From contig JAOSKM010000001.1 of assembly GCA_027493625.1 (NCBI GenBank), positions 2,068,657-2,132,656 of the forward strand: a stretch of DNA of 64,000 nt, given 5' to 3'. The notes under the pieces are model-generated. The model was not told the DNA's origin and did no database searches. It saw only the letters and a list, made by a program, of their open reading frames with translations. This document shows, piece after piece, positions 2,918 to 23,390 of the stretch (position 1 is the first letter of the stretch; each line of letters starts with the position of its first letter). The DNA comes from Planctomycetota bacterium (GTDB lineage Bacteria; Planctomycetota; UBA8742; UBA2392). A program made the translations under genes and the position numbers.

Positions 2918-4006
2918 ATGCGCAGGATGATTGTGGCCACTCTGGCCGTCGCGGTCCTTTTCGCGGCCGGCTGCCAGGACCAGGAAGCGCGGAACCAGAA
3001 CGCACGGCTGCAGGCCGAGCTTGACGCCATGAAGGCCAAGCAGGGCAGCGGCGGCAACGATGCACTGCTGGCGCTGCTGGCCAACCAGAACAAGAGCCAG
3101 GACAACGCCGCCCTCGAGCGCAAGCTCAACTCGTTCGGCGAAGACGTCTCGGCCGGGCTGGACAAGATCCAGAAGCAGATCCGGGACAACGACAGCGCCT
3201 CGGGCAAGCGCATGGACGACATCGAGGGCAAGCTGAAGCAGGTCAGCGACCTGCAGGCCACGATCACCACGCTGCGCGGCATGATCGAGTCGCTGGAAAG
3301 CAAGGTGAAGAGCGTCGACCCCAACGAAGTGCTCAACGTCCAGAAAGACCTGATCAACAAGGAAGCCGACCTGCGGCTCGAGAAGCAGCTCAAGGAAGCG
3401 GCGCTGGCCGAGGTGTCCGCCATGAAGGACCAGCTCGCGGCGGCGCAGGCCGAGGTCGAGAACCTCAAGGCCGAGATGGCCGGCCTGCAGGGCGCGGACA
3501 TCAGCAAGCACCCGATGTACCGCGAAAAGGAAGCCGAGAACCGCAAGCTGGCGGGAGATCTGAAGAAGTCCCAGTCCGACTACGAAAACCTGAAGCTGCG
3601 CTACGACGAGCTGGAGGCGCAGCTGCGCAAGGGCGCCAACCCGCCCGAAGAGCAGCCCAAGCCCAGCAACCCCGTGTACGACTTCTCGGGGACGGTCACC
3701 GAGGTCAGCAAGGGCTCCCGCCCGGACGGCCCCAGCTACCTGCTGGTGGGCAGCATCAAGGGCAGCGTGCCCGCCATCGGTACTGAGCTGGTGGTGCTGG
3801 ACGCCCGGAGCAACCTGCTGTGCAAGGTGAAAGTGGTGCGCCACTACCACTTCAACGACAACGACGACATGCCCGTCGAGGAAGTGGGCTGCCAGACCAT
3901 CGACGAGAAATCCAGCCGCCCGGTCGCCAAGGGCGACACCGTGGCCTGGATCAAGGCCAAGGAAGCCGGCGGCGGCGAAAGCAAGGGCGCCGCGGGCGGG
4001 GAATAA
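2918..4006 (+). CDS. Coiled-coil lipoprotein, function unknown
   Basis: Lipobox signal MRRMIVATLAVAVLFAAGC. A long heptad-like Q/E/K/L-rich region follows (KLKQVSDLQATITTLRGMIESLESKVK...), then a globular C-terminal domain. Confidence 0.7.
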   Translation: MRRMIVATLAVAVLFAAGCQDQEARNQNARLQAELDAMKAKQGSGGNDALLALLANQNKSQDNAALERKLNSFGEDVSAGLDKIQKQIRDNDSASGKRMDDIEGKLKQVSDLQATITTLRGMIESLESKVKSVDPNEVLNVQKDLINKEADLRLEKQLKEAALAEVSAMKDQLAAAQAEVENLKAEMAGLQGADISKHPMYREKEAENRKLAGDLKKSQSDYENLKLRYDELEAQLRKGANPPEEQPKPSNPVYDFSGTVTEVSKGSRPDGPSYLLVGSIKGSVPAIGTELVVLDARSNLLCKVKVVRHYHFNDNDDMPVEEVGCQTIDEKSSRPVAKGDTVAWIKAKEAGGGESKGAAGGE

Positions 4007-4043
4007 TCCCTCCCTGGCGGGGCTGAAATCCGTATCAGCAGCA

Positions 4044-4064
4044 GGGGGCGCCCCGCGCGCCCCC
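4044..4064 (+). terminator. GC hairpin downstream of the coiled-coil lipoprotein gene
   Basis: gggggcgc / cccgc / gcgccccc followed by ttgcta. The T-tract is weak. Confidence 0.4.
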
Positions 4065-4103
4065 TTGCTATGCTGTCGGGCGTCATCGTGTTAAGGAAGC
4101 CGC

Positions 4104-6236
4104 ATGAAATTCATCCGCCTCGTGGCCCTGCTGGCCTTGCTGCTGGCGCCGGCACTGCTCTCCGCCCAGGACGACAAGCTCGCTGAAGAAGCCGGCAAGC
4201 TGATCGAGCGCATCGCCAAGCGCCCCGAAAAGGCATGGGATTACGCCTTTGCCCTGCGCCGCCTGGCCGAGGCCGAAGAGGGCGGCGCACTCGTCGGCGA
4301 GTTCGAGAAGCAGCTCGAGCACGAATCCGAGGCCGTACGCATGGTGTGCAGCCAGCTGGTGCTGCTGTACGGCACCCCCGAACTGGCCTACGAAACCTGG
4401 GGCGAGCTGCTGGAAAGCGAAGACAGCGCGATCATCGAGGCCGTCGCCATGATGATCACCGGCGAAGGCCCCGAGGACGAAGAACTGCTGGAGCGCGTAA
4501 AGACGGCCTGGGAGGACTCGTCCGAGCTGTCGCCGGGCGCGCGCACCGCCCTGTGCGAAGCGCTGCTGGTCAATCAGAAGGATGAGCTGGCCCTGGAGCA
4601 GCTGCGTGAATTCCTGTCCTCGCCCGACCACGAGCTGGTGGGGCGCGCCTCGCTGGTGCTGTCCGAGCGCGGCCACCCGGCCGAGGTCGCGGCCCGCATC
4701 GACAACCTCAGCAAAGAGCCCGGCGACATCGGGCGGCTGGCCCGCATCGGGCGCGAGGTGGTGAAGATCGACCAGGCCGTGGAAGATCACAAGTCCGGCA
4801 AGTTCAAGCGCAAGGATTACCTGATCGAGACCGAGATCCGGGCCATCAAGAAGCATTACGTGGATGAGCAGTTCATCTACGCCGAGAAGCCCCAGGCCCT
4901 GAACAGCGAGAACCTGCTCGACAACGCCTGCCGCGCCATGGCCCTGGCCACCGACCGCTACGGCGCCTTCATGACGCGCAAAGAAATCGAGGAGATGAAC
5001 CAGGACCAGGAAGGCAACTACGTCGGCATCGGCGCGCACGTCGCGGTCGGCGACGACGGCCTGATCTACATCACCCAGCCGATCTACGAGGGCCCGGCCT
5101 ACGCCGCGGGCGTTCGCACCGGCGACAAGCTGCTGGGCATCCTGGGCCCCGACGGCAAGCGCATCGACCTCACGACGCTGAGCCTCGAGGAAGGCGTCAG
5201 CCACGTGCGCGGCCCGGAAGGCTCCACCGCAACCATCTTCGTGAAGCGCCGCGGCCATGAGGGCGAGCTGAAGTTCGAGATCCCGCGCAAGGTGGTGCAC
5301 GTGGACACCGCCCTCGAGGAAATGCTGCCCGGCCAGGTCGGTTACGTGCGGCTCACGCGCTTCGGCGGCAACAGCACCAACGACATGAAGGAATCGCTGG
5401 CCAACCTGCGCCGCCAGGGCATGAAGTCGCTGATCCTGGACATGCGCGACAACCCGGGCGGGCAGCTCTCGGCCGTGGTGGAAATCGCCGACATGTTCCT
5501 GCCCAAGGAAGCGCTGATCTCCAGCACCGGCGGGCGCTTCGACCAGTGGCGCAAGAAGCAGGTGTTCCGCAGCCGCGGCGGCGACTACAACGAGATCCCG
5601 ATGGTTTGCCTGATCGACGAAAACAGCGCCTCGGGCGCCGAGATGCTGTCGGGCGCGCTGAAAGACAACAACCGCGCGCAGATTCTCGGGCGCGCCAGCT
5701 TCGGCAAGGGCATCGGCCAGAGCTTCTTCACCGTCGAGAACAGCGGCGGCTCGCGCGTGCTGAAGTGCACGGTGTTCCGCTATTTCCTGCCCAGCGGCAT
5801 CAGCATCGACCGCTACGAGGGCGAGGGCGGCGTGACCCCGCAGATCGAGATCAAGCCCAGCCTGCTCAAGCCCTGGGAGGTCTACGCCATCGACAAGCTG
5901 CGCGCCTCGGGCAAGATCGCCGACTACCTCGACCGCCACTACGCCGGCGCGAAGAAAGCCGAGCTGATGAAGCTGGCCAGCTTCGACGGGCTGAACGCCG
6001 GGCTGTGGCCCGAGTTCGACCGGTTCTACAGCGAGCTGAACACCCAGCTCGCCAAGGACGACGTCCGCCGCGAACTGCGCTACGCCCTGCGCGCCCGCGT
6101 GCAGGACGACCGCGGCGCCGAGTTCACCCAGAACTACCAGGAAGACCCGGGCATCCTGCGCAGCGTGAAGGAACTGTTCGCCAAGACCGGCCAGGACACC
6201 GCAAGCATCCCGGAGTACAAGGCCGTCATGAAGTAA
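4104..6236 (+). CDS. S41 family C-terminal processing peptidase with N-terminal helical-repeat and PDZ domains
   Basis: Signal peptide MKFIRLVALLALLLAPALLSAQ. PDZ-like GIGAHVAVGDDGLIYITQPIYEGPAYAAGVRTGDKLLGI. S41 core LILDMRDNPGGQL, ENSASGAEMLSGALKDNNRAQILGRASFGKG (Ser/Lys dyad context). Confidence 0.9.
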   Translation: MKFIRLVALLALLLAPALLSAQDDKLAEEAGKLIERIAKRPEKAWDYAFALRRLAEAEEGGALVGEFEKQLEHESEAVRMVCSQLVLLYGTPELAYETWGELLESEDSAIIEAVAMMITGEGPEDEELLERVKTAWEDSSELSPGARTALCEALLVNQKDELALEQLREFLSSPDHELVGRASLVLSERGHPAEVAARIDNLSKEPGDIGRLARIGREVVKIDQAVEDHKSGKFKRKDYLIETEIRAIKKHYVDEQFIYAEKPQALNSENLLDNACRAMALATDRYGAFMTRKEIEEMNQDQEGNYVGIGAHVAVGDDGLIYITQPIYEGPAYAAGVRTGDKLLGILGPDGKRIDLTTLSLEEGVSHVRGPEGSTATIFVKRRGHEGELKFEIPRKVVHVDTALEEMLPGQVGYVRLTRFGGNSTNDMKESLANLRRQGMKSLILDMRDNPGGQLSAVVEIADMFLPKEALISSTGGRFDQWRKKQVFRSRGGDYNEIPMVCLIDENSASGAEMLSGALKDNNRAQILGRASFGKGIGQSFFTVENSGGSRVLKCTVFRYFLPSGISIDRYEGEGGVTPQIEIKPSLLKPWEVYAIDKLRASGKIADYLDRHYAGAKKAELMKLASFDGLNAGLWPEFDRFYSELNTQLAKDDVRRELRYALRARVQDDRGAEFTQNYQEDPGILRSVKELFAKTGQDTASIPEYKAVMK

Positions 6237-6260
6237 CGGAGCGCGGACGTCCCGTCCGCA

Positions 6261-6289
6261 CTCACGGCCGGCGCCTCGCCGGCCGTGAG
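6261..6289 (+). terminator. Rho-independent-type terminator hairpin after the S41 peptidase gene
   Basis: Perfect 13-bp stem ctcacggccggcg / cgccggccgtgag with a 3-nt loop, followed by cttt. Confidence 0.55.
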
Positions 6290-6343: not shown

Positions 6344-7390
6344 ATGAAGCCGTTCCTCAAACAGGTCCGCCGTTTCCTGCCGCTGCTGCTCAGCCTGGCG
6401 GTGCTGGTGTACCTGTTCGGCTTCCGCACCGACCCCGTCGAGAACTGGAACACCGCAAAGAGCGTCCGGCCCTCCATGCTGTACCTCGCGCTGGGGCTGG
6501 GTTTGATCAGCTTCGTGTTCCAGGCCGTGCGCCTGAAAATCCTGGTCGAGGTGCTGGGCCACAAGGTCAGCCTCACGCGCATGCTGGTCTACACGCTGGT
6601 CGGCCAGTTCTACAACTCCGCCATCCCCGGCGGCTCCGTGGGCGGCGACGCCATCAAGGCCCTCTACCTGTCCAACGCCACGCGCAGCAAGCCCCAGGCC
6701 TTCGCGGCCGTGCTGGTGGACCGTCTTTGCGGCCTGTTCATGCTGGCGACGCTGGCGCTGCTGATGCTGCTGCCCAGCATCGCCGAGCCCACCATGCGCC
6801 AGGCCGCGGCGGTGATCGTCGTGTTCACCGGCGGCGCGACCGTGGCGATCGTGGGCATGACCAGCCGCCGCGTGCGCCGCCTGCTGCCCAAGGGGCTTTC
6901 GAGTCGGCTGCCCTTCCACGACACCATCCGCGCCTTTGACGAGGCGATGCAGATTTACCGCGGCCACAAGAAGGGGCTGCTGCTGGCGCTGCTGCTGAGC
7001 ATCCTGCCGCAGGCGGGCTGGATCGGCATGCACATCGCGGTCGGCCAGGGCATCGGCATCCAGCTGATCTGGACCGACTACGCCGTGCTGATCCCCGTGG
7101 CGGGCATGGTGGCCGCGCTGCCCATCAGCTTCGGCGGATGGGGCGTGGGCGAGGCCGCCAGCGTGCACTTCTTCGGCCTGCGCGGCATCGCGCGCGAGCC
7201 GGCCCAGGTGCTGTCCCTGATGGGGCGCCTGATCCAGCTGGCCTGGGCGCTCGTGGGCCTGCCCATGGCCTGGGCCCTGCCAAGGCCCAAAGACATCGAA
7301 GCGGCCGTGCAGGGCGACGCCGTGCTGGCCGACCCCGCCGTGGAAGCCGCCGCCCAGCCCCGGCCCGAAGGCCGGGGATTGCCAGAGTGA
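6344..7390 (+). CDS. Lysylphosphatidylglycerol-synthase-TM-like (flippase-like, UPF0104) membrane protein
   Basis: Multi-pass hydrophobic protein carrying the motif NSAIPGGSVGGDAIKALYL typical of this family. Confidence 0.75.
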   Translation: MKPFLKQVRRFLPLLLSLAVLVYLFGFRTDPVENWNTAKSVRPSMLYLALGLGLISFVFQAVRLKILVEVLGHKVSLTRMLVYTLVGQFYNSAIPGGSVGGDAIKALYLSNATRSKPQAFAAVLVDRLCGLFMLATLALLMLLPSIAEPTMRQAAAVIVVFTGGATVAIVGMTSRRVRRLLPKGLSSRLPFHDTIRAFDEAMQIYRGHKKGLLLALLLSILPQAGWIGMHIAVGQGIGIQLIWTDYAVLIPVAGMVAALPISFGGWGVGEAASVHFFGLRGIAREPAQVLSLMGRLIQLAWALVGLPMAWALPRPKDIEAAVQGDAVLADPAVEAAAQPRPEGRGLPE

Positions 7391-9023: not shown

Positions 9024-9236
9024 CTTTCCATGGCCTGGAAGGCCATGGCACGAATCACGGCCTTGAAGGCCGTGCCACTTCGCGTCGCCAAAAATAATTT
9101 CTTCTGCCGTAAATCCAGTTCCTGCACAGCCTTGGGTTGCGGCGCTGGCTCAAACACTCCGAAAAATGTCGCACGCGTGGGTATGGTTTCCGGCGTCGGG
9201 CGCGACGGTTGCGCCGGTCTCTTCTGGAGTATTGAC

Positions 9237-9728
9237 ATGTCAAGGTATCCGTCAGTCAGGCCGAAGCCGGCCAAGCCCCAGCGCGCGGACGACCCCGCGG
9301 TGAAGGTCGAAAACACCATCCGCGACGCGGCCCACGAAATCTACCGCGAGCGGGACGGCGCCAGCATCGATGCCGCCATCGTGCGCTACCAGAACATGCT
9401 GGAGCTGCACGACGAGGAAGTGGCGAAGCTGAAGGGCAAGGAAGAAGCGCCCTACCGCTGGAAGGTTTCGCCCTCGGTGGTGATCCGCGTGCAGCGCGAG
9501 ATCGAGCGCCTGCAGCAGAAGCGCGAAGCCCTGCGCGCCGAGTGCTGGGCGCTGGCGCAGCAGCTGGTGGATGACTGGATGCGCAACCCGCCGGCGCAGG
9601 TTGCTGAAGCCCAGAAGGGACAGGCACCGAAGGTGCCTGTCCCTGGCGGCATGCCCGAAAGAGGACAGGCACCACAAGTGCCGGTCCCTGAAAGGAGCAC
9701 GGCTGAGCCCGCCACCAGCGCGGCGTAG
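9237..9728 (+). CDS. Hypothetical protein (163 aa)
   Basis: ORF 9030..9728 trimmed to M at 9237, after the repeat cluster. Coiled-coil-like middle (IERLQQKREALRAE). The C-terminal GQAPKVPVP / GQAPQVPVP is encoded by two palindromic DNA units (9618-9642, 9663-9687). No family recognised. Confidence 0.45.
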   Translation: MSRYPSVRPKPAKPQRADDPAVKVENTIRDAAHEIYRERDGASIDAAIVRYQNMLELHDEEVAKLKGKEEAPYRWKVSPSVVIRVQREIERLQQKREALRAECWALAQQLVDDWMRNPPAQVAEAQKGQAPKVPVPGGMPERGQAPQVPVPERSTAEPATSAA

Positions 9729-9733
9729 CTCTC

Positions 9734-9781
9734 GTGGGGCAGGCTTCCAGCCTGCCATGGCAGACAGGATGTCTGCCCCAC
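9734..9781. terminator. Double hairpin between convergent genes (candidate bidirectional terminator)
   Basis: Outer stem gtggggcag / ctgccccac encloses ggcaggc-ttcca-gcctgcc and ggcagac-aggat-gtctgcc. Confidence 0.5.
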
Positions 9782-9785
9782 GGGA

Positions 9786-10823
9786 CTACTCGCCCTCGAG
9801 TTCCTTCAACCAGGCTTCGTACTGGGCCTGGAAGTCGCGGGCGCTGGATGCGATGGCGCGCTCCTTGTTGTCCTCGGCGAACTTCTTCAGCTTCTCCGCG
9901 GCGTTGCGTGCGGCCTCGATGGTCTTCTTGCCGCCGTCGCCGGCGCTCTCGAAGGGCAGCCAGATCTGCAGGCGCAGCGCCACGTAGGCGCGGCGGGCCT
10001 TCATCTCGGGCTCGTAGTCATCGAGCGCCTTGATGCGGGCGATCTCCTTTGCTGCGTCCGGCTCGTCCTCGAAGCCCTTGAAATGGGCCGCGAGCTCGGA
10101 CCAGCAGGCGAGCGCCAGCTCGTAACGGCCGCAGATCTCGTGCACCTCGGCGCGTTTGCGCAGGGTGTCGCGCATGTCCTCAATGCGCGTCACCAGCTCG
10201 TCGGCCTGCTCGATGACCTTGTCGGCCGCGTCGCTGTCGGCCACGGCGCTTGCCAGCTTGTGGGCCTCGGCGTAGCGGGCGGCGCCGAAGGCCTCGGCGG
10301 CGGGCTCAAGGGGCGAATAGACGCGGCTGAGGCCAAGGCGCGGGTGCTTCACTTTCTTGAGCTCCTTGAGAGCCGCTTCTTCCCAGCCTTCCTGGGCGGC
10401 GTGGATGATCTTGCCGTCAACGCCGATCACCCACACGCAGCACAGCAGGGGCGCGGTGAAGCGGCTGTCAAAGAAGCCGTCGAGCGCGACCGGGTGCGTG
10501 AGCTTCAGGTCGGCGACGGACTTCTCGATGGTCTCGAGGCTCTGGAACTGGACGTAGGCGGACACGAAATGGATGCCCTTGCCGGCGTGCTCTTTCTCAA
10601 GCTCGTTGAAGCGGCGCAACTGCGCCAGGCAGGGCGGTCACGTGCAGCCCCACTTCTTGAACACGATCACGTCGCCGCGCAGCTCAGAGAAGCCGTCCCA
10701 GGCGGGCGGGTTGATCCAGTGCTGCACGGCGTGGTCAACGGGCTCGTCCCCCACCGCGTAGGGTTCCTGGGCCGTCAGCGCCACAGGCAGCAGCAGCAGA
10801 AGTGTCAGCAGCAATCGGGACAT
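9786..10823 (-). CDS. Secreted TlpA/redoxin-like thiol:disulfide oxidoreductase with helical C-terminal domain; candidate selenoprotein (in-frame TGA at 10638-10640 read as Sec)
   Basis: ORFs 10638..10823 and 9786..10619 are in the same frame (1038 nt = 346 codons). Joined sequence: ...GDVIVFKKWGCT-TGA-PPCLAQLRRFNELEKEHAGKGIHFVSAY. The TGA occupies the first Cys of the canonical thioredoxin-fold W-C-P-P-C motif. N-terminal signal peptide MSRLLLTLLLLLPVALTAQ. Confidence 0.7.
10612..10627 (-). promoter_or_regulatory. Candidate bacterial SECIS hairpin
   Basis: The mRNA reads UGA-CCGCCCUGCC-U GGCGC AGUU GCGCC G. This is a 5-bp GC stem (plus a U-G pair) with apical loop AGUU, starting ~11 nt after the UGA. 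Confidence 0.5.
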
Positions 10824-10850: not shown

Positions 10851-11008
10851 GGAACAGGAGCCGCAAGCGCAAGCGCGCGGCAGGAAGCAGGCGGCAGGCG
10901 GCAGGCGGCAGAAAAAGCAAACCTCCCCAAGCCCATAGCCCTAAGCCCCAAGCCCTAAGACCCTGACCCTAAGCCCTAAAACCTAACCCCTGAAACCTAA
11001 CCCCTATC
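10851..11008. repeat. Composite intergenic element: 31-mer + (GGCAGG)n + degenerate CCCTAAG/CCCCAAG heptamer array
   Basis: 10851-10881 ggaacaggagccgcaagcgcaagcgcgcggc is the exact reverse complement of 57073-57103. It is followed by ggcaggcggcaggcggcag and about 12 heptamer-like units (ccccaag, ccctaag, ...). Confidence 0.8.
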
Positions 11009-13089: not shown

Positions 13090-15053
13090 CTAGTCATCGC
13101 CGGGGAAGCCTTCGGGCAGGCCGGGGATCTCGCGCTCGCCCTGTTTGCCGAAGAACACCGCCTTGCCGCCGCCCTGCTTCGCGATCGGCTTCAGCCAGGC
13201 CATCTGCGCCTCGCCGATACCCACGCACTGGATGCGGCAGCGGCGCACCAGGTTCATGCGCTCGACCTCGTCCAGCAGGTTGGTCATCTCGAAGGCGCTG
13301 AAGCCGAAGTTCCGGGCGCAGGCGTAGGGGCCGTTGTCGTCGTGGTTCTCGAACTGGTAGCGATAGACCTCTTTCTTGCGCCACATGCGGCTGGCCGGTT
13401 GAGCGGGCTGGGCGGGGATCTTCGTCTTGGTGATCGCGCCGGTCTCCGGGTCGCGGGTCTGGATCTCGCGCTCGGGCTGCGCCGGGCGCGCGGGGAACTC
13501 CACCCACTCGCCCTCGCCAGGCTGCTTCGTCGCGTAGTAGGCCGAGCCGGTGTACTCGTAGTCGATCTTGGGCGTGTCGCCGCTGAAGCCGTCACGGATC
13601 GGCGAGCCGTCCGACAGCAGGAAGATCGCGTCCGCCCCTTCCGTCACCAGCTTCAGGTCCCAGTGCTCGCGCGGCTCGTTCACGATACCGCCCTTGCCCA
13701 TGCGGTACGCCGCCAGCAGCGCCTTGTAGTAGTTCGTCTCGCCCAGCAGCACGCCGTGCGGGCGGGTGTCCTTCCTGTCGGCGGGCGCCTCCCCGGCCGA
13801 ATGGCATCCAGCGCCGCGCCGATCTTGCGCGCGTTGCCGCTGCTGGCGGACACGAAGCTGCGCGTGACCGGCAGCGGCTCGGCGTCGTCACCGAACAGGA
13901 TCACGGCCACCTGCTTGTCCTTGCCCAGGCGCGAGAGCGTCCACTTCACGTGTTCGCGCGCGGCATCGAAGCGGTTGTGGACGCGCTTCCAGTCGATCTC
14001 GTACTCGTCGTCGCCGGCCTTGCGGCGCCCGCCGGTGACCGGGTTTTTGATCGCGTCGCGGTCGGCGTCGGACAGCGGGTTCAGCATCGAATCCGAGGCG
14101 TCGATCAGGAACACGATGCGTTCGCCCATCACATCGAGGCCCATGAAGCTGGCGAAGGTGGCGCCGTCGTCGTCGCCCAGGGGGTCGTGGCCGCTGTCGA
14201 ACAGCATCTTCCACATCGCGGGGAACTGGTACGGGTGCTTGGTGCCGAAGCAGAACTGCAGGGCCAGCGCGGCCTCGCGCTTGCTGCGGCCGAGCAGCGC
14301 CTTCTTGTCGTCCACCAGCGCGGTGATGCGGTCGAACAGCGGCCGCCAGTCGTCCAGCACCGGCTGGCCCACCTTGTGCAGCGGGCGGTAGGCGCGCGCG
14401 GCCGACCAGCAGATGGCCTCATAGATCACGGCGCTTTCGCCGCCGGCCTTGAAGTCCTCCTGCAGCATCAACTGCAGCGCCCGGCGCAGGTGCTCGAAGC
14501 CGCCGTGCTCGAGGGCGCAGAGCAGCGCCGCGCGGGTAGCGGCCGGGGCGCGCTTGTCGCCCACGATCTCGAGCAGCTCCAGCGCGATGTCGGCGTCGTC
14601 CTCGATGGCGAGGATGCAGGCGGCGCAGTAGACGCCCCAGACGTCGGGGGCGCTGCGGTAGTACCGTTTGACGAACTTGCGCAACGCCTTCAGGTCGGAC
14701 TCGCTGGGCTGCTGGCGCTGGGCGGCGAACTGCTCGGTGGTGATGTCGTGGCGCGCGCGCAGGTAGGATGCCGCCAGGTAGCGCATGTTGTCGGCGAAGG
14801 CGGCGGGCGGCTTGTCGTAGACCTGCAGCAGGCGGGGCAGCACGTCGTCGCCGCTGAAGCGCGAGTATTGCTGGAGCTGCTCGGCGTTCCAGCGCAGGGA
14901 GGTGGACTCGGCCATGCGGTCCAGGAACTCGGCCGTGACCTTCTTCTGGTCGTCCTGGTTGGCGGGCTTGCCCTGGGCGGCGGAGGGGACCCAGGCCGCA
15001 AGCAGCAGCGCGGCCAGGGCGAGGGGCAGCAGGGGGCGGGCGGTGTTTCGCAT
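13090..15053 (-). pseudogene. Secreted HEAT-like + VWA domain protein interrupted by a 1-nt frameshift (pseudogene or assembly indel)
   Basis: ORF 13680..15107 (signal MRNTARPLLPLALAALLLAAW; MIDAS IVFLIDASDSM) loses sense after ...GAALDAI. ORF 13090..13752 continues in another frame (GEAPADRKDTRPHGVLLGETNYYKALLAAYRM...IFLLSDGSP). The frames join if one extra C is added in the cccc run at 13791-13794. Paralog of 40274..41743. Confidence 0.7.
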
Positions 15054-15218
15054 CGGCGTCTCCAGTGCGACTGCCAGAAGTCTAACTGCCGACCGCGCCC
15101 ATCCCAAGTTCGCAATGCTGTCTCAGGCCCAAAGGTTCGCAGATCGGCACACAACGAAACACCCGCCGCAAATAGAAAAGGGGCCGGCGCGAGGCCGGCC
15201 CCCTGTGCGGGTTTGGGG

Positions 15219-16361
15219 CTATTCCTTGCCGTAGACGTTTACCGTGGCCTTGCCTTCCTTGCGGCCCTGGGTGCTGTACTTGAACACGATGCGCTCGACC
15301 GTGCGGGCGTCGCCGGGAAAGTCCACCTTGCGGCTGCGCGATCCTTCGTTGAACTCCAGGCGCGTCTTCACCTCGTGCTGCTTGCCGTTGCCGAAGGTCA
15401 CCACGATCTCGTGCATCTCGAGGTCCGCGTTCTCCACCTCGATCATGAACGCCGTGAACTTGCCCTTGCTGTCGCCCACGATGATCACGTCGGTGTCCTT
15501 GCCGAAATCCACTACGCGGCTCGCCAGGTGCTTGAAGTTCGGGTAGCGCACGTCCACGCCGGCCGGGCGGCCGAACAGCTTGACGGTGGCCTTGCCCTGG
15601 CCGATCTTGCTCTTGTAGGCGAAGGTGACCTTCTTGATGAAGCGGGCCTCGCCGGGCAGGTCGATCACGCGGCTGCGCGACTTCTGGTCGAAGCTGGCGC
15701 GCAGCTCGGGCGAGAAGCTCTCTTCGTTGCCGAACTCGACCTTGATGTTCCACATCTCGAGTTCACCTTCCACCACGCCGATCACGATGGCCGTGAACTT
15801 GCCTTCGCTGGCGGTTACCTCGATGGTGTCGCGGTCGGCGCCGAAATCGACCTTGCGCTCCCCGAGAAGCTGGTAGCCCTCGTCGCTCCTGGGCAGGTGG
15901 TCTTTCCACTCGCCCTTGTCGGGGCCGGGCTTGTCGCCGGCGTCGGCAGGCTTGCCGAACAGCTTGACGGTGGCCTTGCCGCGCTTCAGCTTGCTCTTGT
16001 ACTTGAAGGTGACTTCCTTGATCACTCGCGCCTCGCCCGGCAGGTCGATCTGCCGCGAACGCTCACCCTGCTTGAACTCCGCGCGGATCTCCGGCGAGTA
16101 GGTCTCGTCGTTGCCGAAGGTGACCTTGATGTCCCACATCTCGAGGTTGCCCTCGATCACGCCGATCATCAGGCTGACGTAGCGGCCTTCGCGCGCGCCC
16201 ACCTCGATGGTGTCCTTGTCGGCGCCGAAATCGACTTTCTTCTCGCCCAGCAGTTCGTAGTTGGGGAACTTCTCGGCCCAGTTGGGCTTGTCGTCCTGCG
16301 CGTTCACGCTGGTGAACGCGGCCAGCGAAATCAGCAATGCCGTCATCAATACAGTCTTCAT
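15219..16361 (-). CDS. Secreted protein with three tandem ~115-aa repeats of an uncharacterised beta-rich domain
   Basis: Signal peptide MKTVLMTALLISLAAFTSVNAQ (start 16361). There are three copies of VDFG(A/K)D.DTI.V....G.F....I.V....LEMW(D/N)IKV.FGN......E.R..F......SR.IDLPGEAR.IK.VTF.YKSK...GKATVKLFG. Confidence 0.75.
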   Translation of the reverse strand: MKTVLMTALLISLAAFTSVNAQDDKPNWAEKFPNYELLGEKKVDFGADKDTIEVGAREGRYVSLMIGVIEGNLEMWDIKVTFGNDETYSPEIRAEFKQGERSRQIDLPGEARVIKEVTFKYKSKLKRGKATVKLFGKPADAGDKPGPDKGEWKDHLPRSDEGYQLLGERKVDFGADRDTIEVTASEGKFTAIVIGVVEGELEMWNIKVEFGNEESFSPELRASFDQKSRSRVIDLPGEARFIKKVTFAYKSKIGQGKATVKLFGRPAGVDVRYPNFKHLASRVVDFGKDTDVIIVGDSKGKFTAFMIEVENADLEMHEIVVTFGNGKQHEVKTRLEFNEGSRSRKVDFPGDARTVERIVFKYSTQGRKEGKATVNVYGKE

Positions 16362-16551: not shown

Positions 16552-16986
16552 ATGCACACCATGAAATTTTCTCTGCTTCTGCTGACCATCCTGGCGCTCG
16601 GCTTCACTGCCGGCTGCGGCGGGCGCGGCGCGCGGCCGATCAACACCCAGGACGGCGACGCCGACCGCGTCGAGCTGCTGGGCTCACGCAAGGTGGACTT
16701 CAAGGCCGACCACGACGTGATCCTGGTGACGTTGAAGGAAGGCACCTTCCACGCGCTGCGCGTCGAGGTGGAAGGCAGCGAGCTGGAGATGTGGGACATC
16801 GACGTGTTCTTCAGCAACGGCGGGCACCAGGACTTCAACACGCGGGTGCACTTCGCCGAGGGCAGCTGGAGCCGCAGGCTGGACCTGCGCGGCGGAGCCA
16901 GGGGCATCAAGAAGGTGACCTTCAAGTACAAGAGCAAGAAGCCCCGCACCGGCAAGGCCACCGTCAAGCTGTACGGCATCCACTAG
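16552..16986 (+). CDS. Lipoprotein with a single copy of the same uncharacterised domain
   Basis: Lipobox MHTMKFSLLLLTILALGFTAGC. Domain VDFKADHDVILVTLKEGTFHALRVEVEGSELEMWDIDVFFSNGGHQDFNTRVHFAEGSWSRRLDLRGGARGIKKVTFKYKSKKPRTGKATVKLYG. Divergent from 15219..16361. Confidence 0.75.
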   Translation: MHTMKFSLLLLTILALGFTAGCGGRGARPINTQDGDADRVELLGSRKVDFKADHDVILVTLKEGTFHALRVEVEGSELEMWDIDVFFSNGGHQDFNTRVHFAEGSWSRRLDLRGGARGIKKVTFKYKSKKPRTGKATVKLYGIH

Positions 16987-16999
16987 GGCTCAGGCGTCG

Positions 17000-17024
17000 A
17001 ACCAGCCCGCATTGCGGGCTGGTT
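17000..17024. terminator. Bidirectional terminator hairpin between convergent genes
   Basis: Perfect 11-bp stem aaccagcccgc / gcgggctggtt with loop att, followed by gcgttttc. Confidence 0.6.
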
Positions 17025-17030
17025 GCGTTT

Positions 17031-18911
17031 TCAGAACTCGTCTTCCTGCGGGCCGTCATCTTCCGGCTTGGGTGGCGGCGATTCGTTCGGGTCCTTGGGC
17101 CCCTCGTAGGGGCGCTCGTCCTTGGGCCAGATCGGCAAGAAGTCGCTGCTGCTACCCGTCTCTTCCGGCGGCATGCGATCCACCGTACAGCCCGGCAGCG
17201 CCTGGCGCAGGGCCTCCACGGCCGCGTCACTGACTTCCGCCTGTGCTTCGTAGCGCCTGCGCTCGCCGCTCTTCATGTCGTACACCACCCGGTACGCCGC
17301 GCTGAAGGTGACGGACTGGAGGCTCTTGATGCCGTGCAGCAGCTTCACGCCAGTATCGCTGACTTCGCGGCACATCCGCAGGTCCAGCACCTCCAGCGGC
17401 ATACCGGCCCTGGCGAGCGCCGCCAGGGCCCCGTCTCCGACGGACTTGCTGTTCGCGAGCGAAACCTCGCGCAGTTGCTTGCAGCCGGCCGCGCCTTCCA
17501 GGCCGTGACCCTGGATGCCGCTGCAGTATTCGATCCGCAGCACCCGCAGCGACGCCAGCGGCGCCAGACCCGCCTTCAATCCTTCATCCGTGAGTCCGTC
17601 GCAGAACGACAACTCCAGCTTCTCCAGCGGGCATTCCGCCAGCGCCGCCAGGCCGGAGCCCGTGAAGGGGCGGTAGTCCTCTTCCCAGCCCGGCCGCGCC
17701 TGGCTCAGTTTGAGATTCCTGAGCTGCTTCATGCCGGCCAGCGCAGCCAGCCCGGCATCGTCGGCGCCGCAGGCCGGGATCACCAGCTCCTCGATCCGCG
17801 ACAGCGCGCCGAGCGCCTGCATTCCTTCCTTGTTAATGCGCCCGTAGCTGCCGCCGCTGCTGCTCCAGCCCCAGCCGGAGCGAAGCCTGAGCACGCGCAG
17901 GGCGGGCGCTTGTCCGAGGTTCGCCCAGTCTTTCTCCTTGATCCCGGCGCTGCTGATCTCGAGCACCTCCAGCGCGGGCAGCCCGGCCAGCACCTTCAGC
18001 GCCAGGCCGGGAACGCCCTTCTGGCCCTGGAGGTCAAGCTCTTTCAGGTGCCGCAAGCCGGAAAGGAAATCGATGCCGATGTCGGAGATGCCTTCGGCGT
18101 CGTTCATGCTCGACAGGTCCAGCTTCTCGAGCGCCGCGAACGTGCCGATGAACTGCATGCCCCAGTCGGTCAGGGCGGTATTGGACAGGCCGAGCACCTT
18201 GAGCTGCTTCAGGGGCGCCAGCAGCTCAAGCCCGTCGTCGATGGGGCCTTTGACTTCATCCAGCACCAGCTCATGCAGGCTGGTCCAGCGCGCGATCGCC
18301 TTGCAGGCCTCGCCGGACAGCTCCCAGCCGGACAGGTCAAGCAGCTGGATCTCCGGCAGCGCGCCCAGCGCCCGCAGGCCGGCGACGCCCAGTGGCGCGA
18401 AACTCTGGAAGGTGCGCGGGATGCGCAGTTCCTGCAGACCCTGCAGCGGCGCGAGCTCGGCGATGCCGGCGTCCGTCACCTCCATGCAGAAGCGCAGGTT
18501 AAGGCGGCGCAGCCTGGTCATTGCGCCGATCGGCTTCATGCCGTCGTCAGTCAGGCCTTCTCCCCATACAATGTGCAGTTCCTCCAGCGCCGGCAGCCGC
18601 GCCGCACCCTTCAGCAGCGCCTCGTGCGCAGCCCCGAAATCCAGCGTCAGACGCCGCACGGTTTTCAGCCCTGCCAGCACGGCCGCGGCTTTTTCGGCGT
18701 CGGCCGGAGTCTCGAGTCGTGCGCCGAAGCGCAACTCTTCCACGCGGGTGAAGCGCTTGAGCGCCTCGAAGCCCCGCAGGTCAAGGCCGCCGCAGCGCAC
18801 CACTCCGGCGTCGTCCGGCAGCGCGGCGAGATCGTCTTTGGGCGCGTCCTGCGCGGAAAGGCTCGCCGCGCAGAGCAGCGCCAGCAGGATCAGGACGGTT
18901 CGATTCCGCAT
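17031..18911 (-). CDS. Secreted leucine-rich repeat (RNI-like) protein
   Basis: Signal MRNRTVLILLALLCAASLSAQ. About 20 LRR units (LRRLNLRFCMEVTDAGIAELAPLQGLQEL...). Pro/Glu-rich C-terminal tail. Confidence 0.8.
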   Translation of the reverse strand: MRNRTVLILLALLCAASLSAQDAPKDDLAALPDDAGVVRCGGLDLRGFEALKRFTRVEELRFGARLETPADAEKAAAVLAGLKTVRRLTLDFGAAHEALLKGAARLPALEELHIVWGEGLTDDGMKPIGAMTRLRRLNLRFCMEVTDAGIAELAPLQGLQELRIPRTFQSFAPLGVAGLRALGALPEIQLLDLSGWELSGEACKAIARWTSLHELVLDEVKGPIDDGLELLAPLKQLKVLGLSNTALTDWGMQFIGTFAALEKLDLSSMNDAEGISDIGIDFLSGLRHLKELDLQGQKGVPGLALKVLAGLPALEVLEISSAGIKEKDWANLGQAPALRVLRLRSGWGWSSSGGSYGRINKEGMQALGALSRIEELVIPACGADDAGLAALAGMKQLRNLKLSQARPGWEEDYRPFTGSGLAALAECPLEKLELSFCDGLTDEGLKAGLAPLASLRVLRIEYCSGIQGHGLEGAAGCKQLREVSLANSKSVGDGALAALARAGMPLEVLDLRMCREVSDTGVKLLHGIKSLQSVTFSAAYRVVYDMKSGERRRYEAQAEVSDAAVEALRQALPGCTVDRMPPEETGSSSDFLPIWPKDERPYEGPKDPNESPPPKPEDDGPQEDEF

Positions 18912-18913
18912 GT

Positions 18914-20857
18914 TCACCTCCGCTCGGGGCCGCCGTTGATGTCGCACCTGGGCAGCAGCGCCTTGAGTTCCTGCACGGCTTCGAGAGTCATGTTGGGCGG
19001 GCGGCCCAGGATGATCCGCCGCAGCGTCGTCATGTTGCCCAGCAGGTGCAGCGACTTGTCGGTCAGCAGCGCGCAGCTCCCTATGTTCAGCATCTCCAGC
19101 TTCATTCGGATGATCTCCGCGATGCCCCCGTCGGTGATGGCGTCGCAGCCGCAGATCTGCAGCTCGACCAGCGTCCCGAGCTTGCCGATGTGCGCCAGGG
19201 CCGCGTCGGTCAGGTCTTCACAGAAGTTCAAGTTCAGCTCACGCAGGCGTTTCAGGGCCGAGAGTCCGGCAAAGGCCTCCGCGGGGATGCCCTGCACGCT
19301 CCACAGTTCCAGGGTCTCCAGGCCGGTGAATCCGCAGATCACCGCCATCCCCTCGGCGCCGGGCTGGCTGGCACCCAGGCTCAGGTGCCGCAGCTTCTTC
19401 AGGCCTGCCAGTCCCTTCACGCCGGCGGCCGTGACCTTGCCGGTGCGCCCGAACTTCAGCGCTTCCAGGTTCTCCAGCGCGCCCAGGGCGGCGATGCCGG
19501 CGTCCCCCACCTTCGGCGCATCGTACAGGTCAAGTTCACGCAGCGAGGCGCACGCGGCCAGAGACTTCAGCCCTTCATCGGTGACCGGCAGGTGTTCGCG
19601 GCCGCGCGGGCTGAGCTGCAGCTTGCGCAGGCGAGGCAGTTTCGCGAGGGCGGCGAGCACGTCGTCGTCCACGATGTCGATGTCTTCAAGGTCGAGCTCT
19701 TCCAGGGTTGCCATGCCGGCCAGTTCCTTGAGCCCCCTGGTGGTGCAGGCGGCCTGGTCCCCTTCGCGCCACTCGCGAGATTGGCCCTGCCAGCTGAAGT
19801 ACATGCCCTGGGAGCCGCCCAGGCTGAGCACCCGCAGGGACGGCGACTTCGCCAGGCCAGCCAGCCCGGTGTCGTCCGCACCGGCGCAACGCCTGGCATG
19901 CAGAACCTTCAGACCGGGCAGTTTCCCCAGATGCGCGAAGCCGGCGCCCGTGCACTGTTCGCAGCCGCCCAGTTGCAGGGTTTCCAGCGTCTTGACCCCG
20001 GACAGATGCTCAAGCCCCGTGTCGCCGATTTTGCTGCCGGAAAGATCCAGTTCTTTCAGCTTGGGGCACCTGGTCAGCCAGCGGATCCCGGAGTCGGTGA
20101 AATTCTCGCAGCCGCCGACATCAAGCACCTCCAGCTCCGGCAGCCGCGACATGCGCGCCAGGAAAGAGTCCGTCACCGCCCTTCCCGTCCCGTCGCCGCT
20201 GATGCCGCTTACATGTATCTCGCGCAGCGTCTGGATCCGGCCCAGCCAGGCCATGCCGGCCGTGCTGACGCCGTCCAGCCACTCGCTGCTTCCGAACGGG
20301 CCGCGCGAGCCGCCGTCGGCGCTGAACCACAGAACGGCCAGGCTTGCGGTTTCCGACAGCGCCTCCAGACAGGCGTCATCGAAGGCGGCGCAGCCATACG
20401 CCACCAGCTCATGCAGCGCCGGCAGCGCCGCGATGCGCTTGAAGGTGGCCGGGCCGACCCAGTCCCGGCCGGAGATGTCGAGGAACTCGAGTTTCTTCAA
20501 GCCATCCAGGCAGGCGGCGGCTTCGTCAGTCAGGACGGCCTTGTTCTCGGAGTAGCTGCTGGAAACATCAAGCCATACCAGGTTGGTCAGCCCGGCCAGG
20601 TACTTCAGCCCGGCCGCCGTGTACGTGGGGTGGGGCGGGTCGCTGTGCGAGATATCGAGCCGCGTGAGTTGCGTGCGCTTCGCCAGCGCCTCCAGGGCCG
20701 CGTCGTCCAGACCGATGCAACGCAGCTCGGTGACGTCCTCCGGCAGCGCCCGGATCTCCGCGGCCGAGGCGACCGTGTGCCACGCCGACGTATCAATGCC
20801 GCGCGCGGCAAGAACGGGCAACAGAAAGGCAAGCGAGAGCAGTGCGAGGGCACGCAT
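18914..20857 (-). CDS. Secreted leucine-rich repeat (RNI-like) protein
   Basis: Signal MRALALLSLAFLLPVLAARG (start 20857). LRR units run throughout (LTRLDISHS, LKELDLSGSKIGDTGLEHL, LRELNLNFCEDLTDAAL). In tandem with the preceding LRR gene. Confidence 0.8.
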   Translation of the reverse strand: MRALALLSLAFLLPVLAARGIDTSAWHTVASAAEIRALPEDVTELRCIGLDDAALEALAKRTQLTRLDISHSDPPHPTYTAAGLKYLAGLTNLVWLDVSSSYSENKAVLTDEAAACLDGLKKLEFLDISGRDWVGPATFKRIAALPALHELVAYGCAAFDDACLEALSETASLAVLWFSADGGSRGPFGSSEWLDGVSTAGMAWLGRIQTLREIHVSGISGDGTGRAVTDSFLARMSRLPELEVLDVGGCENFTDSGIRWLTRCPKLKELDLSGSKIGDTGLEHLSGVKTLETLQLGGCEQCTGAGFAHLGKLPGLKVLHARRCAGADDTGLAGLAKSPSLRVLSLGGSQGMYFSWQGQSREWREGDQAACTTRGLKELAGMATLEELDLEDIDIVDDDVLAALAKLPRLRKLQLSPRGREHLPVTDEGLKSLAACASLRELDLYDAPKVGDAGIAALGALENLEALKFGRTGKVTAAGVKGLAGLKKLRHLSLGASQPGAEGMAVICGFTGLETLELWSVQGIPAEAFAGLSALKRLRELNLNFCEDLTDAALAHIGKLGTLVELQICGCDAITDGGIAEIIRMKLEMLNIGSCALLTDKSLHLLGNMTTLRRIILGRPPNMTLEAVQELKALLPRCDINGGPERR

Positions 20858-21071
20858 GGGCAGCTCCGGACTCCGGTTTCGCCCCGGGGAAGGCGCCATG
20901 AGTGTAGCATTTGAGACACAGGACCGGCGGCATTCCAGGCCGGAAATCGGTTGGCTGCAGGAACCTCGACAAGGCCGGCCCGGTTTATCCGGTGCGGATT
21001 CCGGGCCGCTTGCCATTTGCGCTGCTCGCCAACGGGTCTAGATTGCGGGCAGTGCAACGAAAGGGACAGCC

Positions 21072-23390
21072 TTGAAGATTGTCAGCATTGGCGGCGGGCC
21101 GGCCGGGCTTTACTTCTCGATCCTGATGAAGAAGCAGGACCCCGCGCACGACATCACGGTGATCGAGCGCAACCGGCCTTACGACACCTTCGGCTGGGGC
21201 GTGGTGTTCAGCGACGAAACCCTGGGCGGCTTCGAAGTTGCCGACAAGCCAAGCTACGACCGCATCGTCAACGAGTTCGCCTACTGGCCCGACATCGACA
21301 CCCACATCAAGGGCGAGGTGATCCGCAGCACCGGCCACGGCTTCGCCGGCATGAGCCGCAAGAAGCTGCTGAACATCTTCCAGGCACGCGCCGAGGAACT
21401 GGGCGTGAAGCTGGTGTTCGAAAAGGAAGTCCAGTCGCTGGAGCCCTACAAAGACGCCGACCTGATCCTGGGCGCCGACGGCGTCAACTCCTGGGTGCGC
21501 GAGCACCACAAGCAGTTCTTCCAGCCCGACATCGACTGGCGCAAGTGCAAGTTCTGCTGGCTCGGCGCCGACTTCAGGCTGCCCGCCTTCACCTTCATCT
21601 ACGAGGAAAACGAGCACGGCCTGTTCACCGTGCACGCCTACCCCTTCGAGCAAAACACCAGCACCTGGATCGTCGAGTGCCGCGAGGAAACCTGGAAGAA
21701 AGCCGGGCTCGACAAGGCCGACGAAGCCCAGACCATCGCCTACTGCGAGAAGCTGTTCGCCAAGTACCTGTCTGGCCACAAGCTGCTGGGCAACAAGAGC
21801 GTGTGGCGCACCTTCCCGACCATCCGCAACAAGACCTGGGTGCACGAGAACATCGTGCTGATGGGCGACGCCGCCCACACCGCGCACTTCAGCATCGGCA
21901 GCGGCACCAAGCTGGCGATGGAAGACGCCATCGAGCTCGCGCAGGCGTTTGCCGACAACGGCTGCGAAAACGTCAACGCCACGCTGAAGCTGTACGAGGC
22001 GCGCCGCTGGGTGGACGGCGCCAAGCTGCAGAAGACCGCGCAGACCAGCCTGGAGTGGTTCGAGAACGTCGCGCGCTACTACAAGACCCAGCACCCGGTG
22101 CGCTTCACCTTCAACCAGCTTTCCCGCAGCAAGCGCATCACCTACGACAACCTGAAAATGCGCGACCCGGCCTTCGTCGAGACCGCCACCAACTGGTTCG
22201 CCAAACAGAACCAGTTCCGGGACGTGCGCGTAAAGGCGCCCGCCTACGCCGCCGAAAGCGACGAGCAAACCATCCGCGAGCACTTCGAGCGCGCCGAGCA
22301 GCCCACGGCGCCGCCCGTGTTTCAGCCCTTTCAGCTGCGCGAGATGACACTGGCCAACCGCCTGGTGGTCAGCCCCATGTGCCAGTACAGCAGCGACGAC
22401 GGCTTCCCCAACGACTGGCACATGGTGCACCTGGGCTCGCGCGCGATCGGCGGCGCCGGCCTGCTGTACACCGAGGCCACACACGTCAGCCGCGAAGGCC
22501 GCATCACGCCCGGCTGCGCGGGCATGTACAAACCCGAGCACGCCGCGGCCTGGAAGCGCGTGGTGGACTTCGTGCACGGCTACAGCAAGGCGAAGATCTG
22601 CATGCAGCTCGCGCACGCCGGCCGCAAGGCCAGCACCGACCTGCCCTGGAAAGGCGGCAAGCCGCTGACACGCGAGCAAGGGGCCTGGCAGACCATCGCG
22701 CCCAGCGCCATCCCCTATAAGGAAGGCTGGCACACTCCGAGTGAGATGACCCAGGGCAACATGGACGCCGTGACCGCCCAGTTCGTGCAGTCGGCGAGGT
22801 GGGCCGACGAAGCCGGCTTCGACATGCTCGAGCTGCACTACGCCCACGGCTACCTGATGAGCACCTTCATCAGCCCGCTCACCAACAAGCGCACCGACGG
22901 CTACGGCGGCTCGCTGGAGGCGCGCATGCAGTACCCGCTGGAATGCTTCAAGGCCGTGCGCGCGGCGTGGCCCGCCGGCAAGCCCATGAGCGTGCGCATC
23001 TCGGCGACCGAGTGGCACGAGGATGGCCTGAAAGATGCGGACCTGCTGGAGATCGCGAAGATGCTCAAGGACGCCGGGCTGGACATCCTGGACGTCAGCG
23101 CCGGCCAGGTGGTGCACGAGCAGCAGCCGATTTACGGCCGCATGTTCCAGACGCCGTTCAGCGACCTGATCCGCAACGAGGCGCACATCGCGACCATGAC
23201 GGTGGGCAACGTGCAGACCGTGGACCAGGCCAATACCATATTGCTGGCCGGCCGCGCGGACCTGGTGGTGATGGCGCGCCCGCACCTGTTCGACCCGTAC
23301 ATGATGATCCACGCGGCGGCGGATTACGACTACGACCTGCAGTACTGGCCGCCCCAGTACCTCGCCGCCAAGCCGCGCCCGAAGGCATGA
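21072..23390 (+). CDS. Bifunctional FAD-dependent monooxygenase / Old-Yellow-Enzyme-like FMN oxidoreductase (salicylyl-CoA 5-hydroxylase-type architecture)
   Basis: N-terminal GxGxxG: [16 protein letters not shown] and [25 protein letters not shown]-terminal OYE-like: [14 protein letters not shown]...HAGRKAS...[28 protein letters not shown]. Confidence 0.85.

Follow-up and report, generated by a model that had tools for sequence, protein, structure and literature searches.

Redoxin- and TlpA-like proteins with a UxxC motif are already among the predicted prokaryotic selenoproteins (PMC13188914 Table 1; PMC9312934), and Planctomycetes are mentioned in neither of these reviews. Here, we analyzed a 64,000-nucleotide stretch from a Planctomycetota bacterium (hereafter, the window; 64.8% G+C), and found on its minus strand a 345-codon gene with an in-frame TGA at the first position of a redox motif, followed by a small hairpin. 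The comparative sequence data suggest, with a probability that we put at about 0.9, that the gene truly encodes a selenoprotein and that its selenocysteine (Sec) insertion sequence (SECIS) is functional. Its product would be a single exported redoxin selenoprotein of 345 residues, with selenium incorporation, export, and activity as predicted properties.

The window protein shares with the listed UxxC redoxins a Redoxin/TlpA-type domain, Sec in place of the N-terminal Cys, and a SECIS placed within the open reading frame (ORF), and all of them are known from sequence only. It differs in that its family was found only in metagenome-assembled genomes (MAGs) of Planctomycetota in our scan, in a C-terminal helical domain of 180 residues and, within the subfamily that includes the window gene (subfamily 1), in a Cys at the cis-Pro position. 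The exemplars of the listed families (HEU0032618.1, MBA3499694.1, and MGB1650493.1) were compared by description only. No description of the window family was found in the literature searched, and the family extends the known class of UxxC redoxin selenoproteins without changing any concept.

The CxxC position is the same as in ResA, TlpA, CcmG (DsbE), and the C-terminal domain of DipZ, which are exported or anchored outside the cytoplasm. Unlike the window protein, they contain Cys instead of Sec, keep the cis-Pro, and are devoid of the C-terminal helical domain. The window protein scored 30 bits with the ResA equivalog model (cut-off 170) and 14 bits with that of TlpA (cut-off 230), and none of the window ORFs scanned near the gene was a ccm, res, ccdA, or dsbD gene. 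The model NF041054 (WAxxUGC_long, 354 positions) describes a ResA-like selenoprotein of similar length and also with Sec in the redox motif, but the window protein, with its WGCT-U-PPC motif, reached 16.9 bits against a cut-off of 300 and is not a member; no NCBIfam selenoprotein model captures the window family. The CnoX/YbbN chaperedoxins have a thioredoxin domain fused to a TPR domain, and CnoX is cytoplasmic and Cys- or Ser-based. By analogy only, the window protein has a similar arrangement, a thioredoxin fold and then a helical-repeat-like domain, but the latter showed no significant TPR match (best E 0.11).

An in-frame TGA at the catalytic position

The gene and its active site have the following coordinates:
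9786..10823, minus strand: predicted complete selenoprotein gene, 345 codons, with Sec as codon 62 and a TAG stop; orthologs are co-linear along the full length.
10629..10640, minus strand: active-site motif U-P-P-C; the UGA at 10640-10638 is the predicted Sec codon, and 10631-10629 encodes the resolving Cys65.

The reading frame goes from the ATG at 10823 to the TAG at 9788-9786, and the TGA at 10640-10638 is its sole interruption. The initial annotation, made from the sequence alone, had described two minus-strand ORFs in the same frame parted by this TGA and had given their joined sequence; both were found as described. The joined translation reads ...GDVIVFKKWGCT-[TGA]-PPCLAQLRRFNELEKEH..., and the context of the site is WGCT-U-PPC. 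The G+C content by codon position is of the coding type on either side of the TGA. When the window was scanned with strict thresholds for in-frame TGA codons with such coding-type composition on both sides, 10640-10638 was the only one retrieved, and relaxed thresholds added three further short ORF pairs, with 26-73 codons per side. In the current annotation by gene callers and NCBI, the gene is represented by a 61-aa ORF and a 277-284 aa protein named 'hypothetical' or 'thioredoxin domain-containing'. The annotated start of the 277-aa protein is the TTG at 10619, which falls within the conserved hairpin loop described below. Recognition of the gene as one unit would restore the full exported redox enzyme that annotation splits.

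Apart from the in-frame TGA itself, nothing favors a genome-wide reassignment of TGA to a sense codon, as in code 4 or 25, and we consider the chance of this close to negligible. Among the 54 window ORFs with coding-type G+C at the third codon position (GC3), 21 are stopped by TGA, and both genes that had been named as examples of TGA termination, 6344..7390 and 21072..23390, do end in this codon. Moreover, only one internal TGA with long coding context on both sides is present in the 64 kb, and the host is itself a high-GC relative of the Planctomycetota with the standard code.

The TGA is conserved in a family of Planctomycetota proteins

A search of 5.8 billion proteins retrieved 17 relatives of the window protein. 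Fourteen of them, with 44-98% identity, are all 277-284 aa long and begin just past the TGA, and the other three are full-length and distant (31-35% identity). Contigs L001-L005, which encode four of the short relatives (L002 repeats L001), contained an in-frame TGA at the same codon each time, and upstream of it a conserved signal peptide and a VGD..HWINPPAW..FSDLRGDVxVFKKWG segment. A scan of GTDB, with one genome per species, gave 36 loci, of which 30 were convincing family members, all from Planctomycetota MAGs; TGA occupied the active-site codon in 27 of these 30, and in every subfamily-1 ortholog examined (47-93% identity). The alignment of orthologs (alignment A1) showed a coding sequence conserved on both sides of the TGA, underlining that the orthologs do not end at this codon. 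The initial annotation had asked whether Cys or TGA occupies this position in orthologs: neither TGC nor TGT was found in close orthologs, and distant relatives contain Cys.

More than 30 independent loci, with identities as low as about 30%, have retained the same TGA, and so have paralogs that share a genome. This argues against a nonsense pseudogene, a sequencing error, or two separate genes, i.e., a 61-aa secreted peptide and a 277-aa protein starting at TTG 10619. The two-gene version does match the gene-caller and NCBI annotation of 61 aa plus 277-284 aa, but both halves show coding-type GC3 and amino-acid conservation, the split would part strand β1 of the thioredoxin fold from the CxxC helix, and the proposed TTG start sits within the conserved hairpin loop. 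We regard this group of explanations as highly improbable and, together with code reassignment, they were rejected as contradicted by the comparative data.

The motif varies within the family. Subfamily 1 has WGC[TDG]-U-PPC, and a paralogous subfamily that co-occurs with it in genomes (L006 with L015, and L009 with L018) has WG[KI]N-U-GPC; more distant members have WGTR-U-GPC and WGVN-U-PPC. Forms with Cys aligned to the TGA column were also found, with WGVNCPPC in the protein P0017 and WGVNCGPC in the locus L030, along with degenerate forms (P0015, P0016, L025, and L026) that are probably redox-dead. In a library of 1.84 billion representative sequences, only 79 clusters (50% identity) matched the family. 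About 31-37 of them (at least 31) start right after the motif, and therefore Sec forms are implied for these; 11 are full-length with CxPC, and 5 are full-length and motif-less. The family is small, made up mostly of predicted Sec forms, and restricted to Planctomycetota in the GTDB scan. It adds to the predicted selenoproteins a family confined to this phylum, with several paralogous subfamilies in which Sec forms would prevail.

Two loci showed unusual arrangements. In L026, a tandem pair is formed by a degenerate Cys copy at 5291-6289, with WGKN-C-KDS and a decayed hairpin, followed directly by a Sec copy with the TGA at 6539-6541, WGKN-U-GPC, and an intact CCGGC-AGUU-GCCGG hairpin. In L029, with the TGA at 10130-10132, the motif is U-G-P-S, with Ser for the resolving Cys, and both the TGA and a GGGGC-AGUU-GCCCC hairpin are retained.

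A covarying hairpin follows the TGA

The minimal SECIS of the Escherichia coli fdhF type is an upper stem-loop placed about 11 nt after the UGA, and a G and a U of its loop contact SelB. The window contains the following element:
10612..10627, minus strand: predicted bacterial-type SECIS hairpin, U GGCGC / AGUU / GCGCC G, defined by comparative covariation.

Its 5' arm (10627-10622), AGUU loop (10621-10618), and 3' arm (10617-10612) form five G-C pairs (10626-10613) plus a closing U.G pair between 10627 and 10612, and the first G-C pair is found 11 nt past the UGA. Like the fdhF element, it is inside the ORF, has an 11-nt spacer, and has a small loop with a G and then a U; it differs in a much shorter helix (5-6 bp), a tetraloop, and the lack of a bulged U, and its SelB binding is only predicted. 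Bacterial SECIS elements have been described as lying just 3' of the UGA, with a small loop at the apex that includes a G (PMC1088965), and the window hairpin fits this description. The hairpins of the SelD genes of this lineage, described below, use a different loop, GACC-UCGUGCA-GGUC.

The hairpin GGCGC-AGUU-GCGCC had been noted in the initial annotation at about 11 nt after the TGA, and its position at 10612-10627 was verified. NNNGC-AGUU-GCNNN was observed in the same register, starting 11 nt past the UGA, in 24 non-identical sequences, with 95.1% of the stem cells paired, versus 21-71% when partners were slid by 1-3 columns. Compensatory changes were found at three pairs, 15-28 (GC/CG/UA), 16-27 (CG/AU/GC), and 17-26 (GC/CG), and the covariation score was 0.524 versus 0.154 in shuffles, with none of the 500 shuffles as high as the observed score. 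The same five pairs were independently predicted by RNAalifold. Some of the changes are synonymous in one arm, as with the Arg codon CGC, whose change to CGT goes along with that of Ala GCG to ACG (Thr) on the opposite side. Moreover, the Leu codon of the loop was TTG in 24 of 24 sequences, compared with 4.4% of Leu codons in the window genes. In the Cys form of L026 this codon is CTT and the stem is lost, and the Cys form L030 has no hairpin.

Two occurrences of a TGA with a hairpin of 5 bp or more and an AGTT loop after it were found in the window, with 0.145 expected from shuffles. The second one, at about 49450, is AT-rich, with a weak stem and no coding frame, and was rejected as a chance match. 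The significance of the hairpin at 10612-10627 rests on comparative data and not on single-sequence energy, and the 24 aligned covarying hairpins could serve as a basis for deriving the SelB recognition motif of the phylum and for finding further selenoproteins. Collectively, the Redoxin match reported below, the TGA-bearing orthologs, the Cys forms, and the covarying hairpin support the proposal of the initial annotation that this is one UxxC selenoprotein, and not two ORFs or a pseudogene.

Next to the family genes, a tRNA-Leu(TAA) was observed just upstream of the subfamily-2 gene, on the opposite strand, in three MAGs (L016, 9683-9771; L023, 9786-9875; and L028, 9732-9820). The codons read by this tRNA are UUA and UUG, the latter being the invariant and otherwise rare Leu codon of the SECIS loop; the link may be a coincidence.

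Sec use in the lineage and weighing of the assignment

Some Planctomycetes have full gene sets for Sec insertion (PMC4807772). Within the family-bearing contigs, L004, which encodes an ortholog with 50% identity, contains a SelD gene 3.4 kb downstream (365 bits with TIGR00476, cut-off 125). This selD, on the minus strand at 14274-15323, has itself an in-frame TGA and reads SHGAG-U-GCK, and therefore SelD would itself be a selenoprotein; gene callers shorten it to 323 aa. Most of its closest relatives among the database SelD proteins lack the N-terminal part and have 309-323 aa. Three further SelDs of the same clade, from other contigs (L043, L045, and L048) and from assemblies other than the MAGs closest to the window, all have U at this position, and L043 belongs to the same MAG assembly (CAZZBH01) as the family locus L026. 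The four SelD genes share a conserved GACC-UCGUGCA-GGUC hairpin about 22 nt past the UGA, and gene callers shorten all of them.

Additional candidates were found in the closest relatives. HK-STAS-PLAN-36 (JACKIE01), the closest one, is syntenic with the window at about 91% nucleotide identity, and at L006 18936-19331 it contains a 112-aa rhodanese-like ORF with an in-frame TGA, VFYCTDPG-U-KASS, that had sub-threshold scores with the rhodanese-related selenoprotein models NF041203 and TsoB. In contig 1 of HK-STAS-PLAN-35 (L018 3859-4995), a TGA interrupts the gene of a secreted protein of 379 aa whose C-terminal domain is TlpA-like, and the site reads FWGFW-U-GPC. Sec use in the lineage is well supported by these predicted genes, and we infer that it extends to the genome of the window.

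Other features were observed around these genes. The TGA of the 379-aa gene in L018 is followed by a GGCCG...CGGCC hairpin, again with AGUU in the loop. The TGA-containing rhodanese-like ORF of L006 is adjoined by a 41%-identical paralog (19368-19694) that has no counterpart in the window. In L048, the gene of a protein of 659 aa that combines AhpC-TSA, Thioredoxin_8, and NHL-repeat domains (3853-5832) adjoins the selD predicted to contain Sec.

Several observations weigh against the assignment of the window gene as a selenoprotein. No selA, selB, selD, or tRNA-Sec was found within the 64-kb window; in the closest MAGs, HK-STAS-PLAN-35 and HK-STAS-PLAN-36, where the gene flanks were covered, no machinery was located either; and among the family-bearing contigs only selD was seen, and never selA, selB, or selC. 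ARAGORN detected no tRNA-Sec in the window and 35 loci (flanks), nor any other tRNA in the window, and none of the 19 window ORFs that are near the gene or of SelA/SelB size had an NCBIfam match to the Sec machinery. A tblastn search of the window and all loci, with the SelD of L004 and an unverified E. coli SelB sequence as queries, matched L004 alone, and the negative for SelB is a weak one. As for the hairpin, part of the stem covariation follows amino-acid changes (Ala/Thr/Pro/Arg, at the codon before Gln), and therefore protein-level constraint contributes to the pattern. Its stem is short, 5-6 bp, and the folding energy in the window is unremarkable by itself (z = -0.56). No Rfam model matched it: at the gathering threshold there was no match anywhere in the window, and a permissive run on 10450-10750 gave just two chance-level matches on the opposite strand.

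The lack of SelB, SelA, and tRNA-Sec in the 64-kb window, and of an Rfam family for the small hairpin, would fit a UGA that is read as Trp, Cys, or Arg by a near-cognate tRNA, with the hairpin as a generic stimulator of read-through or pausing. We consider this very unlikely. The site is that of the catalytic Cys of CxxC and Cys forms exist, and this Sec/Cys pairing is the classical selenoprotein signature; moreover, the spacing and the small loop with a G fit the bacterial SECIS (PMC1088965). The SelD of the lineage contains a predicted Sec, which would itself require Sec decoding, and if a standard residue were inserted, selection would simply fix TGC or TGG.

Protein architecture and proposed mechanism

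The predicted selenoprotein contains three regions:
10770..10823, minus strand: predicted Sec-type (secretory) signal peptide, residues 1-18, MSRLLLTLLLLLPVALTA|QEP, identified by inspection.
10386..10688, minus strand: thioredoxin-fold (Redoxin/TlpA-like) domain, PF08534, Pfam envelope residues 46-146.
9789..10331, minus strand: C-terminal all-helical domain of eight helices, residues 165-345, modelled with AlphaFold2 (AF2).

The segment MSRLLLTLLLLLPVALTA has a basic n-region followed by a Leu-rich core and, ahead of Q, an A-x-A-like site, a layout common to all orthologs; this is in line with the secreted product proposed in the initial annotation. When U was replaced by C, the joined protein matched PF08534 (Redoxin) at E = 4.6e-7, with 30.2 bits (gathering score 26.6), and gave sub-threshold NCBIfam matches to ResA, StoA, TlpA, and NF041054. 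The thioredoxin fold was modelled on the full-length Cys homolog P0017, and from the window protein the C-terminal domain alone was modelled. The AF2 model of P0017 (predicted local distance difference test score, pLDDT, 80.9) showed a thioredoxin fold and then a helical bundle, and its best Foldseek matches in the Protein Data Bank (PDB) were ResA, a Bacillus thiol-disulfide oxidoreductase, DsbE, CcmG, and the C-terminal domain of DipZ, with E values from 2e-8 to 1e-5 and target template modelling (TM) scores of about 0.7. The CxxC was found at the N-terminus of helix α1 in this model and in the motif alignment. The Redoxin match and the alignment of the Cys forms bear out the earlier suggestion of a TlpA/redoxin-type fold with the stop at the N-terminal Cys of CPPC.

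The helical domain of about 180 residues, also anticipated in that annotation, was recovered in the AF2 model of the C-terminal 181 residues of the window protein (pLDDT 94.7, predicted TM score 0.80). This domain had no significant PDB match with Foldseek and matched no Pfam family. There was only a vague TPR-like resemblance to BamD, LapB, and MamA (TM below 0.3).

We propose that UGA codon 62 would be decoded as Sec during translation, and that the GGCGC-AGUU-GCGCC mRNA hairpin would recruit SelB together with its Sec-tRNA(Sec), in the manner classically described for bacteria. Cleavage of the signal peptide would give a periplasmic protein, where Sec62 would be the attacking nucleophile of the U-P-P-C center in a TlpA/ResA-like fold, and Cys65 would resolve the mixed selenenylsulfide. 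This would amount to thiol-disulfide oxidoreductase chemistry, most likely in the direction of reduction. The eight-helix C-terminal domain probably binds a client or partner, which is speculative. Selenium incorporation, periplasmic location, redox direction, and the role of the helical domain are all put forward here as predictions.

Unusual active-site residues of subfamily 1

Two additional Cys residues distinguish subfamily 1:
10440..10442, minus strand: Cys128, at the cis-Pro position of the thioredoxin fold (alignment A1).
10644..10646, minus strand: extra Cys60, two residues before Sec (C-T-U-P-P-C), identified by alignment.

The 13 subfamily-1 sequences all showed LLC-CVWVIGVD, and the Pro is kept, as xLP-xVWVIGVD, in the remaining 20 aligned members of the family, which include Sec, Cys, and degenerate forms. 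The cis-Pro of the Redoxin/TlpA-like fold (PF08534; cd02966) is, hence, missing from the window protein, which is an atypical feature and not grounds for excluding it from the fold. Cys60 was shared by 12 of the 13 sequences of subfamily 1, and no other subfamily contained it. From the known geometry of the thioredoxin fold, the cis-Pro loop faces the CxxC center, and therefore subfamily 1 may have an extended Se/S relay; the participation of Cys60 and Cys128 in such a relay is speculative. The change of cis-Pro to Cys occurs strictly together with the UPPC subfamily, and is a structural oddity, amenable to testing, of a very well-studied fold.

A more tentative idea, which we think is rather unlikely to hold, is that subfamily 1 (C-x-U-P-P-C) is a distinct, obligately selenium-dependent periplasmic enzyme, beyond a Sec version of TlpA. 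If so, a single active site would be surrounded by four chalcogens, one Se and three S, and joined to a helical domain for client binding. Such a center could run a selenenylsulfide relay of its own or bind a metal or metalloid, in either case a chemistry not described for thioredoxin-fold proteins, and the compact lineage-specific SECIS (5-6 bp, AGUU, 11 nt) would be the recognition rule of the Planctomycetota SelB.

Genomic neighborhood

The window neighbors that could be assigned were a MarR-type regulator, a flippase-like (MprF-related) domain protein, and an S41 peptidase, and the other scanned ORFs had no family match. Synteny with L001 adds DUF4416 and DinB-like neighbors, and the wider gene context is not conserved across the family. 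One element adjoins the 3' end of the gene:
9730..9785: long inverted repeat immediately 3' of the stop codon, with arms of 28 nt and 82% complementarity.

This repeat probably forms a hairpin at the transcript end, in common with the convergent neighbor. A perfect 13-bp hairpin, GGGACAGGCACC...GGTGCCTGTCCC, was also present in two copies between the convergent genes, at 9616-9644 and 9663-9689. These hairpins look like repetitive extragenic palindromic (REP) elements or terminators, and overlap the 3' end of the ORF 9030-9728.

The 5' intergenic region (10877-11006) contained about 11.7 degenerate copies of CCCTAAG (CTTAGGG on the gene strand) at 10925-11006 and five degenerate copies of GCGGCAG at 10877-10911. 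The segment 10838-10924 could not be aligned to L007, which is 89-94% identical elsewhere, and this heptamer repeat region seems variable. Finally, a segment of about 4 kb (16986-20975), with two large minus-strand ORFs (17031-18947 and 18914-21016) that had no NCBIfam match, was present in L007 and absent from the syntenic L006, L001/L009, and L008; close relatives are thus polymorphic for an insertion or deletion here.

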